This document shows, one piece after another, positions 13,087-14,378 of a stretch of DNA of 14,943 nucleotides. Position numbers and translations under genes: made by a program. Below the pieces are notes generated by a model, which saw only the letters and a list, made by a program, of their open reading frames with translations, had not been told where the DNA came from and did not search any database. Source of the stretch: a virus (lineage: Duplodnaviria; Heunggongvirae; Uroviricota; Caudoviricetes); the IMG/VR virus record IMGVR_UViG_2713896791_000007. One strand, given 5' to 3'. Positions within the stretch are counted from its first letter, which is position 1. Each line of letters starts with the position of its first letter.

Positions 13087-13098
13087 AGGTCGCCGCCC
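13087..13098 (-). other. cosN: the 12-nt cohesive end (GGGCGGCGACCT on the minus strand); left-end/right-end junction at 13098/13099
   Basis: Plus-strand aggtcgccgccc at 13087..13098 is the reverse complement of GGGCGGCGACCT. It is followed by cgtaacctgtcggatcg, the reverse complement of the lambda right-end sequence as recalled. Confidence 0.85.
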
Positions 13099-13115
13099 CG
13101 TAACCTGTCGGATCG

Positions 13116-13146
13116 NNNNNNNNNNNNNNNNNNNNNNNNNNNNNNN
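13116..13146. other. Run of 31 N (assembly gap or mask) 17 nt from cosN on the right-end side
   Basis: Literal n characters. Confidence 0.99.
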
Positions 13147-13176
13147 ACAACCCGCAACATCCGCTTTCCTAACCAA

Positions 13177-13311
13177 ATGATTGAACAAATTAACATCGCT
13201 CTTGATCAAAAAGGGTCCGGGAATTTCTCAGCCTGGGTCATTGAAGCCTGCCGTCGGAGGCTAACGTCAGAAAAGATAGCATATACATCAATTAAAAGTG
13301 ATGAAGAATGA
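13177..13311 (+). CDS. Small hypothetical protein with a ribbon-helix-helix-like pattern (possibly DUF3950/YlcI-like); 5' end may lie in the N run
   Basis: 44 codons from the ATG at 13177 (MIEQINIALDQKGSGNFSAWVIEACRRRLTSEKIAYTSIKSDEE). The frame is open upstream back to the N run (TTRNIRFPNQ precedes the Met). The pattern is a short basic beta-strand followed by two short helices. Confidence 0.45.
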   Translation: MIEQINIALDQKGSGNFSAWVIEACRRRLTSEKIAYTSIKSDEE

Positions 13312-13406: not shown

Positions 13407-13440
13407 TGACAGTGACAGACTGCGTGTTGGCTCTGTCACA
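13407..13440. repeat. TGACAG repeat cluster: tandem direct TGACAG-TGACAG plus an inverted copy, forming the dyad GTGACAGA-N12-TCTGTCAC
   Basis: Plus-strand tgacagtgacagac...ctctgtcacag. The 8-bp arms at 13412..13419 and 13432..13439 are exact reverse complements. The cluster lies between convergent small ORFs. Confidence 0.5.
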
Positions 13441-13475: not shown

Positions 13476-13682
13476 TCAGTCAACCACCAGGGAATAATCC
13501 TTCATATTATTATCGTGCTTCACCAACGCTGCCTCAATTGCCCTGAATGCTTCCAGAGACACCTTATGTTCTATACATGCAATTACAACATCAGGGTAAC
13601 TCATAGAAATGGTGCTATTAAGCATATTTTTTACACGAATCAGATCCACGGAGGGATCATCAGCAGATTGTTCTTTATTCAT
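13476..13682 (-). CDS. Hypothetical 68-aa protein (same position as lambda orf lambdap79 / YbcW-like)
   Basis: 68-aa ORF ([68 protein letters not shown]) with GGAG 9 nt upstream of its ATG. It is divergent from the YbcV-like ORF. Confidence 0.7.
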
Positions 13683-13730: not shown

Positions 13731-13756
13731 TCAAATCTTTCTGTATGAAGATTTGA
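13731..13756. promoter_or_regulatory. Perfect 9-bp inverted repeat TCAAATCTT-N8-AAGATTTGA in the divergent intergenic region (candidate operator)
   Basis: Plus-strand tcaaatctt at 13731..13739 and aagatttga at 13748..13756 are exact reverse complements. The site lies between the divergently oriented 68-aa ORF and the YbcV-like ORF. Confidence 0.4.
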
Positions 13757-13967
13757 GCACGTTGGCCTTACATACATCTGTCGGTTGTATTTCCCTCCAG
13801 AATGCCAGCAGGACCGCACTTTGTTACACAACCAATACTATTAATTGAAAACATTCCTAATATTTGACATAAATCATCAACAAAACACAAAGAGGTCAGA
13901 CCAGATTGAAACGATAAAAACGATAATGCAAACTACGCGCCCTCGTATCACATGGAAGGTTTTACCA

Positions 13968-14378
13968 ATGGCTCAGGTTGCCATTTTTAAAGAAATATTC
14001 GATCAAGTGCGAAAAGATTTAAACTGTGAATTGTTTTATTCTGAACTAAAACGTCACAATGTCTCACATTATATTTACTATCTAGCCACAGATAATATTC
14101 ACATTGTGTTAGAAAACGATAACACTGTGTTAATAAAAGGACTTAAAAAGGTTGTAAATGTTAAATTCTCAAGAAATACGCATCTTATAGAAACGTCCTT
14201 TGATAGGTTGAAATCAAGAGAAATCACATTTCAGCAATACAGGGAAAATCTTGCTAAAGCAGGAGTTTTCCGATGGGTTACAAATATCCACGAACATAAA
14301 AGATATTACTATACCTTTGATAATTCATTACTATTTACTGAGAGCATTCAGAACACTACACAAATCTTTCCACGCTAA
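13968..14378 (+). CDS. ybcV: DUF1398/YbcV-like hypothetical protein (lambda 'putative envelope protein' position); the longest ORF starts at a TTG at 13845
   Basis: The ORF track gives a 177-aa ORF at 13845..14378 starting with TTG and lacking a Shine-Dalgarno. The internal ATG at 13968 ([38 protein letters not shown]...) is preceded by GGAAGG at a spacing of 8 and gives 136 aa. The protein has no evident signal peptide or transmembrane segment. Confidence 0.7.

Follow-up and report, generated by a model that had tools for sequence, protein, structure and literature searches.

A DUF3950 (YlcI/YnfO) family gene near cos of a lambda-type element, and its candidacy as a small ribbon-helix-helix repressor

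The open reading frame (ORF) at positions 13147-13311 (+ strand) of IMG/VR virus record IMGVR_UViG_2713896791_000007, a 14,943-nucleotide stretch of Caudoviricetes DNA (referred to below, at its full length, as the window), covers codons 11-64 and the stop codon of a ylcI-like gene of 64 codons, of which only this 3′ portion is visible. Sequence comparison identifies it as the lambda-type allele of ylcI, belonging to the DUF3950 (YlcI/YnfO) family and thus already catalogued, and it is a genuine protein-coding gene under strong purifying selection. We further propose, at a rough probability of 0.55, that its product is a small dimeric ribbon-helix-helix (RHH) repressor or autoregulator, encoded by an independently transcribed accessory gene. 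What would be gained is a function for an already catalogued DUF rather than a novel type of system. No temperate phage has been studied more thoroughly than lambda, and yet a strongly conserved gene 200 bp from cos is still off its classical map.

The window comes from a lambda-type prophage or phage and runs in reverse of the standard map; translation of 13147-13308 (+ strand) gives TTRNIRFPNQMIEQINIALDQKGSGNFSAWVIEACRRRLTSEKIAYTSIKSDEE, the very peptide quoted by the first-pass annotation, followed by a stop codon at 13309-13311. This fragment scores 71.9 bits against Pfam DUF3950 (PF13132; E = 3.8e-20, cutoff 25), a profile also matched by 21/21 diverse members of the family, and the full 64-residue protein of the closest relative scores 36.6 bits against NCBIfam NF041551 (YlcI_YnfO_N, cutoff 30), a value that belongs to the full-length protein, the window by itself being without the first 10 codons. 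The DUF3950, YlcI-like assignment made in the first-pass annotation is therefore correct, and its statement that the family has no assigned function agrees with the assignment to PHROG 949, labelled "unknown function," and with a literature search in which no functional study of YlcI, YnfO or DUF3950 was found. RefSeq places an identical allele from an E. coli prophage (L083 2929-3093) between nohD and ybcW, under the name ylcI, "YlcI/YnfO family protein" (WP_001298906.1). Lambda itself has the gene at 98% identity (complement of ~48109-48303); the earlier statement that it is unannotated in classical lambda maps holds for the classical record J02459, which has no feature at this position, but not for other lambda records, where a hypothetical protein is annotated, nor for RefSeq. 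A query of 581 bases comprising the Nu1 end, cos, the ORF and the ybcW start was matched in 4683 of 5426 complete E. coli genomes at a median of two places per genome, which puts the family in ~86% of them, often in several copies. At 50% identity the family has 106 representatives among 1.8 billion proteins; the genuine genomic loci are all enterobacterial, and the family is confined to Enterobacterales.

Relatives leave the reading frame, whose disruption in them had been named in the first-pass annotation as a refuting result, in no doubt. It is intact in 159 of the 163 fetched loci, the remainder being cut contigs, and these loci encode 56 distinct proteins, mostly of 51-77 amino acids, with identity down to ~35-40%. 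Across the 28 core codons that align best, lambdoid copies have a ratio of nonsynonymous to synonymous differences per site (pN/pS) of 0.064, and the corresponding values are 0.146 for satellites, 0.087 for Pantoea, 0.055 for Tatumella and 0.074 for Buttiauxella; with pS of 0.2-0.8 across the five lineages, this is a constraint far beyond chance. The ORF might have been non-coding, its conserved DNA serving cos or an antisense RNA; it is absent from the classical lambda annotation and overlaps a region of convergent transcription, both of which would suit such a case. Low pN/pS in five lineages and a frame kept down to the lowest identities tell against it, as does an Rfam scan of the whole interval with zero matches, and judged by the substitution pattern this alternative is effectively refuted already.

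The beginning of the gene lies under a run of 31 Ns at 13116-13146. Both flanks are 100% identical to the E. coli prophage L083 (12801-13115 matching L083 2402-2716, and 13147-13500 matching L083 2929-3282), so that the run is not length-preserving and stands for the missing 212 bp of L083 2717-2928. It conceals the first 10 codons (ATG TCA ACG..., MSTKNRTRRT), all the DNA upstream of them, in which the promoter and candidate operators would lie, and cos on its cosQ side; read from prophages with identical flanks, the full product is 64 amino acids long and begins with MSTKNRTRRT. Distances taken across the run, such as that from the ORF to cos, are wrong by 181 bp (31 N for 212 bp). A sequence match at 13088-13099 (− strand) gives aggtcgccgccc (reverse complement GGGCGGCGACCT), the cohesive-end sequence of cosN in lambda; the junction of the left and right lambda ends is 13099|13100, and 13100-13115 is the reverse complement of the final J02459 bases (the start of L002). 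Since the true ATG is ~199 bp from the cos nick, the gene is the nearest to cos on the cosQ side without abutting it, and the earlier wording "immediately beside cos" was right in the order of features but not in the distance.

An RHH fold is likely for this protein, although not proven. The AlphaFold2 model of the window fragment, built from a 17-sequence alignment (mean predicted local distance difference test score, pLDDT, 77.6), has an extended coil at residues 1-8, a helix at 9-22, a four-residue turn and a second helix at 27-52, which is the order of N-terminal strand, helix A, tight turn and helix B within ~45 residues that characterizes the RHH superfamily. Single chains were modelled, and DSSP assigns zero strand to the monomer; one would expect a strandless monomer for a single chain of an obligate RHH dimer, and the modelled shape is what one chain of such a dimer should look like. 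The best structural matches to the model are the RHH antitoxins MazE7, ParD2, TacA2 and TacA3, ParD2 being the top Foldseek match in the PDB, with no match against either the PDB or BFVD reaching significance. In a first profile search of the PDB, a CopG RHH chain came out on top with the whole domain aligned (E = 1.2). Comparison by hhalign with an Arc-family profile of 18 sequences yielded P = 9.3e-4 and a probability of 22% over 26 columns in the correct register, and comparison with P22 Arc paired NIRFP with NLRWP (the Arc query was confirmed by 96-98% matches to PF03869 proteins). With single Arc, CopG and Mnt sequences the register was again correct, at probabilities of 6% or less.

The pattern of conservation can be laid over this predicted fold. 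Among the 21 diverse members the invariant residues are R16, F17, I25, N36-V41, A44 and C45, and they map to the strand, to the hydrophobic core and to the first part of helix B, where N36, F37, S38, A39, W40 and V41 appear in the window as NFSAWV. The usual RHH turn is G-x-S/T/N, with the N-terminus of helix B capped by Ser, Thr or Asn; in the DUF3950 family the capping Asn (N36) is invariant and the turn varies (GSGN, SSEN, NSQN, PSAN), without a conserved Gly at −2. Arc contacts bases through Gln9, Asn11 and Arg13, which in the Arc register correspond to YlcI residues 12, 14 and 16. Residue 16 is the invariant Arg, and residues 12 and 14 vary between subgroups, as would be expected of positions that determine specificity.

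DNA upstream of the DUF3950 genes bears on the same residues. In P4-like satellites (L044-L076; for example L059 2860-3000) GGTG-N6/7-CAC boxes are found at about −150, −100, −77 and −30, together with an invariant ACGTCAA at about −65 and a −10-like hexamer (TATAGT/TATGGT) that abuts the −30 box, and these arrays lie between the DUF3950 gene and a divergent block of small genes and primase. Boxes of one element share similar inner bases, which change from element to element and go together with residue 12 of the protein: Thr with the core CAyATACAC, Tyr with the cores TTTAAAC/TGTAAAC (in elements of Xenorhabdus, Serratia and Pectobacterium), and Lys with GC-rich cores. The Tyr proteins of Serratia and Pectobacterium share 73-74% identity with non-Tyr proteins and 69-70% with the Tyr proteins of Xenorhabdus, and overall the three Tyr lineages are not each other's closest relatives. 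This covariation is the best argument for DNA being read through the strand, and from it we infer that the protein would bind these operators; it also supplies a testable rule, by which Tyr, Thr or Lys at residue 12 would predict an AT-rich, mixed or GC-rich box core. Other subgroups have palindromes of their own just before the start codon (GTAAC-GGC-GTTAC, GTTAC-N6-GTAAC, GATGGTA-GT-TACCATC). In the lambdoid region a 13-nt imperfect inverted repeat at −102 to −70, under the N-run, flanks a TATCGT hexamer, and this dyad, with the satellite box arrays, offers concrete targets for binding. The ACGTCAA heptamer is the sole satellite feature common to the lambdoid copies, at −112 as against about −65; we do not take it as established homology to the satellite layout.

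Further toward cos, just inside cosQ, stands a perfect palindrome, ATGATAAT-A-ATTATCAT (−164 to −148, L083 2735-2751), whose lambda version is GTGATAATGATTATCAT (L002 ~36-52). A promoter-like GTGACA-16-TATCAT, directed toward cos and Nu1, overlaps this palindrome, which by eye resembles a Fur box, agreeing at ~15/19 positions with the consensus GATAATGATAATCATTATC.

A small protein of this kind could also act without touching DNA, as a helical inhibitor of a host protein or of a protein of a rival element. Many small accessory prophage proteins act by protein-protein contacts, support for the RHH fold is just moderate, and the invariant NFSAWV..AC motif, with its conserved Cys and Trp, is not among the RHH sequence features known to us. 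A ribbon that reads DNA, on the other hand, predicts a basic arm at the N-terminus, an alternating strand in which Arg16 is invariant, and repeated palindromic boxes that vary together with residue 12; an effector acting purely on proteins leaves these unexplained, and we regard it as unlikely.

According to the RHH repressor reading, the protein would be composed of a basic N-terminal arm (MSTKNRTRRTTTR), a short β-strand (NIRF), helix A (PNQMIEQINIALDQ), the four-residue turn (GSGN), helix B (FSAWVIEACRRRL) and a variable tail, which is the plan of Arc and CopG. In the dimer, the strands of both chains would come together as a ribbon for reading the major groove, with residues 12, 14 and 16 as the counterparts of the Arc contacts. 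The gene would form an independently transcribed accessory ("moron"-like) unit antisense to the late operon, with its promoter in the ~200 bp between cosQ and the ATG, and the product would serve as a sequence-specific transcriptional repressor or autoregulator at operators in its own promoter region, rather than as a packaging factor. Antisense genes with their own promoter opposite lytic operons are typically accessory loci (PMC7067206). ExcludonFinder lists the ybcW and ylcI pair of K-12 as a convergent excludon, with overlapping transcripts in at least 50% of RNA-seq samples (PMC12288877), which shows transcription of the ylcI copy of prophage DLP12 and supports expression in a prophage indirectly.

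Several observations weigh against this reading. The strand-helix-helix pattern of Arc/MetJ/CopG-type DNA binders claimed by the first-pass annotation is moderately supported by the topology of the model, with its extended N-terminus and two helices, by the rank of ParD2 and by the hhalign register, but the ParD2 rank is not significant, and a Pfam scan of the 21 diverse members at E ≤ 10 returned not even a weak match to an RHH family. The hhalign probability is just 22%, and RHH significance is reached by no sequence-based test; a PDB profile search with a second alignment lost the CopG match, both searches gave E ≥ 0.48, and their top matches differ. The covariation of boxes with residue 12 comprises a small number of independent events, and the boxes might be bound by some other protein of the satellites. 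The GGTG boxes of satellite type were searched for in the lambdoid copies and are absent, and a consensus scan of the cos-to-ATG interval found no sigma-70-like promoter on the strand of the gene. In the classical view expression in lambda lysogens is limited to cI, rexAB, lom and bor (PMC7067206), against which stands the merely predicted expression of the lambda ylcI copy.

The position of the gene invites a role in packaging. The ORF is on the + strand, and Nu1 (terminase small subunit, nohD-type; 12364-12909, − strand), found in the window ORF list and annotated in L001 and L083, and A (terminase; 10464-12389, − strand), found in the ORF list, are on the other, confirming that it lies opposite the late operon as first described; Nu1 and the ylcI-like gene are divergent, with cos between them. 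In Escherichia and Shigella the gene is always ~390 bp from the Nu1 start and divergent from Nu1. An accessory factor of packaging, one that would attach to cos (cosQ/cosN) or to terminase and adjust how packaging begins or ends, would accord with its being the gene nearest cos on the cosQ side, with the keeping of that position across Escherichia/Shigella lambdoid prophages, and with the perfect palindrome just inside cosQ. However, equally selected homologues occur away from terminase and cos in satellites, Pantoea, Tatumella and Buttiauxella, and the orientation of the gene, antisense to the late operon, keeps its expression apart from that of the packaging genes. Decades of cos genetics are not known to have required a factor encoded here, and we consider a packaging factor very unlikely.

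Distant members illustrate how loosely the family is tied to cos. In P4-like satellites the gene is flanked on one side by alpA plus an unidentified 230-aa ORF and on the other by a small-gene block that contains a D5-type primase, its own strand being opposite to that of these genes (for example L059, with AlpA PF05930 and D5_N/Pox_D5), and a "YlcI/YnfO family protein" is listed among the genes of capsid-forming phage-inducible chromosomal islands (PICIs) in a 2026 survey (PMC13612085). Chromosomal homologues in Pantoea, Tatumella and Buttiauxella lie beside transporter or metabolic genes. Because its distant members are in satellites or at chromosomal sites, cos proximity is a feature of the lambdoid elements and not of the family.

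Among the Escherichia and Shigella prophages two arrangements are found downstream. In the YlcI type the DUF3950 gene is followed by a convergent ybcW and then by ybcV, and in the YnfO type (L033, L034, L037, L038), which encodes a 77-aa protein, ybcW is missing and a DUF1398 gene comes directly after on the same strand. In these four prophages and in L040, the DUF1398 (YbcV/YdfO) gene starts ~30 bp after the DUF3950 gene, and it is possible that the two form an operon. PHROG 413 labels the DUF1398 protein "head protein," a label that looks doubtful because the gene sits among accessory genes. The same-strand DUF1398 gene of the YnfO type, along with the structural matches to MazE7, ParD2, TacA2 and TacA3, would suit a self-repressing type II RHH antitoxin whose toxin is encoded next to it, for instance the DUF1398 protein YbcV/YdfO or YbcW. 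In the window, though, the next gene, ybcW, is convergent and not co-transcribed, and satellite and chromosomal homologues have neither a YbcV- or YbcW-like neighbor nor a recurring same-strand downstream partner. The tail past helix B is short (0-25 aa) and not conserved, unlike a toxin-binding extension, and PADLOC defence profiles match neither YlcI nor YbcW; an antitoxin is, on balance, very unlikely.

The first-pass annotation had also pointed to two dyad-symmetric sites near the ORF and suggested that the protein might regulate neighboring cargo genes or interact with cos. Both dyads are real: GTGACAGA-N12-TCTGTCAC at 13412-13439 (no strand) has perfect 8-bp arms (13412-13419/13432-13439), and TCAAATCTT-N8-AAGATTTGA at 13731-13756 (no strand) has perfect 9-bp arms (13731-13739/13748-13756). 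Both are located beyond the stop codon, by 101-128 bp and 420-445 bp respectively, and not at the promoter of the gene, the former in the convergent gap between ylcI and ybcW and the latter in the divergent gap between ybcW and ybcV. As RNA both have modest stability (z −1.4 to −2.7) and no U-tail; the sequence at 13412-13439 folds at −17.1 kcal/mol on the + strand and −18.5 kcal/mol on the − strand (z −1.4 and −2.1). The dyad at 13412-13439 is invariant in 68 of 120 loci, and because both are invariant wherever present they give no covariation signal. Most simply, 13412-13439 is a hairpin at the shared 3′ ends of the ylcI-like gene and ybcW, which fits the transcript overlap of these genes in K-12; a terminator scan from cos to ybcV found none for the ylcI-like gene. 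As a YlcI binding site this dyad is unsupported, given its downstream position and invariant sequence, and the dyad at 13731-13756 is not linked to the ylcI-like gene.

The neighboring genes appear to answer to another regulator. The ybcW-like gene (13476-13682, − strand; lambdap79 type, 68 aa, PHROG 657, ybcW in L083) is convergent with ylcI, and the ybcV-like gene (DUF1398; 13926-14378, + strand) is supported by the ORF list and the L083 annotation. In DLP12, PdhR binds AtcTGGTctgACCtcTT between ybcV and ybcW, and the mRNA of both is ~10-fold lower in a pdhR mutant (PMC7660256). The window has the PdhR-box core TGGTCTGACC at 13894-13903 (− strand; 1 match vs. 0.01 expected), identical to the DLP12 site, and prophage cargo genes would in this way be wired to host pyruvate sensing through PdhR. 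With homologues away from cos and terminase, dyads that are invariant and downstream, and ybcW/ybcV activated by PdhR in DLP12, the suggested action on cos or on the two dyads is not supported. A September 2026 bioRxiv preprint on an NADase immunity domain (10.64898/2026.09.04.749371) names lambdap79 six times, which suggests that the ybcW-like neighbor may interact with a defence system.

A bolder extension would start from the satellites. YlcI-family proteins could there be element-specific repressors that silence the icd-primase module of P4-like elements and capsid-forming PICIs through the GGTG-N6/7-CAC arrays, with the lambdoid copy beside cos as a homologue engaged in helper-satellite cross-talk. 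We hold this to be a long shot. If it were true, the lambdoid copy might mimic or compete with the satellite repressor, either blocking induction or being exploited as an induction signal, and the best-hidden conserved gene of lambda would be an anti-satellite or satellite-sensing factor.

Some matches encountered in the survey are of a different nature. Entries labelled Staphylococcus, Streptomyces, spider and the like were not accepted as homologues, being lambda DNA at 95-100% identity, often on contigs of ~3.5 kb. Lambda right-end DNA was likewise seen in assemblies labelled Cohnella, Pedobacter and Veillonella, with many frameshifted variants. The non-enterobacterial matches are consistent with contamination by sequencing-control lambda together with noisy reads, which inflates the apparent host range. 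One protein of 129 aa (P0185) joins a DUF3950 N-terminal domain to a C-terminal segment (…KKGMTQKAAAIAAGYSEKTAKVKGSQLAKDPHV…) that by eye resembles the helix-turn-helix of a terminase small subunit; either a true fusion or a frameshift error could account for it. Elsewhere in the window, two 50-N runs (912-961 and 1264-1313) in the tape-measure gene H enclose a 302-bp segment, 962-1263, that duplicates 493-794 and matches L164 601-902 at 99.3%. The sequence around it is collinear with L164 109-1019 and 1105-1791, from which it follows that ~85 bp of gene H are replaced by N50, the repeat and N50; the arrangement suggests either an artefact of scaffolding or a true duplication within the tape-measure gene.

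Compared with known systems, the gene is in effect the same as ylcI of DLP12 and ynfO of Qin, occupying the same place between a Nu1/nohD-type gene and ybcW/ybcV/bor. It differs from YlcI by Ile in place of Arg at residue 54, in the variable tail, and otherwise in nothing substantive; the YnfO type differs in its 77-aa protein with another tail and in the lack of an intervening ybcW. The RHH antitoxins ParD, MazE7 and TacA (DUF1778) are the best structural matches, and YlcI departs from them in having no conserved toxin partner or C-terminal extension. With P22 Arc, Mnt and CopG the predicted protein would share small size, the strand-helix-turn-helix order, an N(I/L)R(F/W)P junction in register, a helix B that begins right after a polar capping residue, carriage on phages, and probably palindromic or repeated operators. 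It is unlike them in that sequence similarity is not significant, that an invariant N-F-S stands where no Gly is conserved, that helix B holds an invariant Trp and Cys, and that its DNA binding is a prediction. Like the lambda morons bor and lom, the gene lies at the right end of the map, in the bor cluster and opposite the late operon, and is probably transcribed independently in the prophage; the products of bor and lom are envelope proteins whose phenotypes are known and whose expression in lysogens is documented, whereas YlcI is a predicted DNA binder with indirect evidence of expression.

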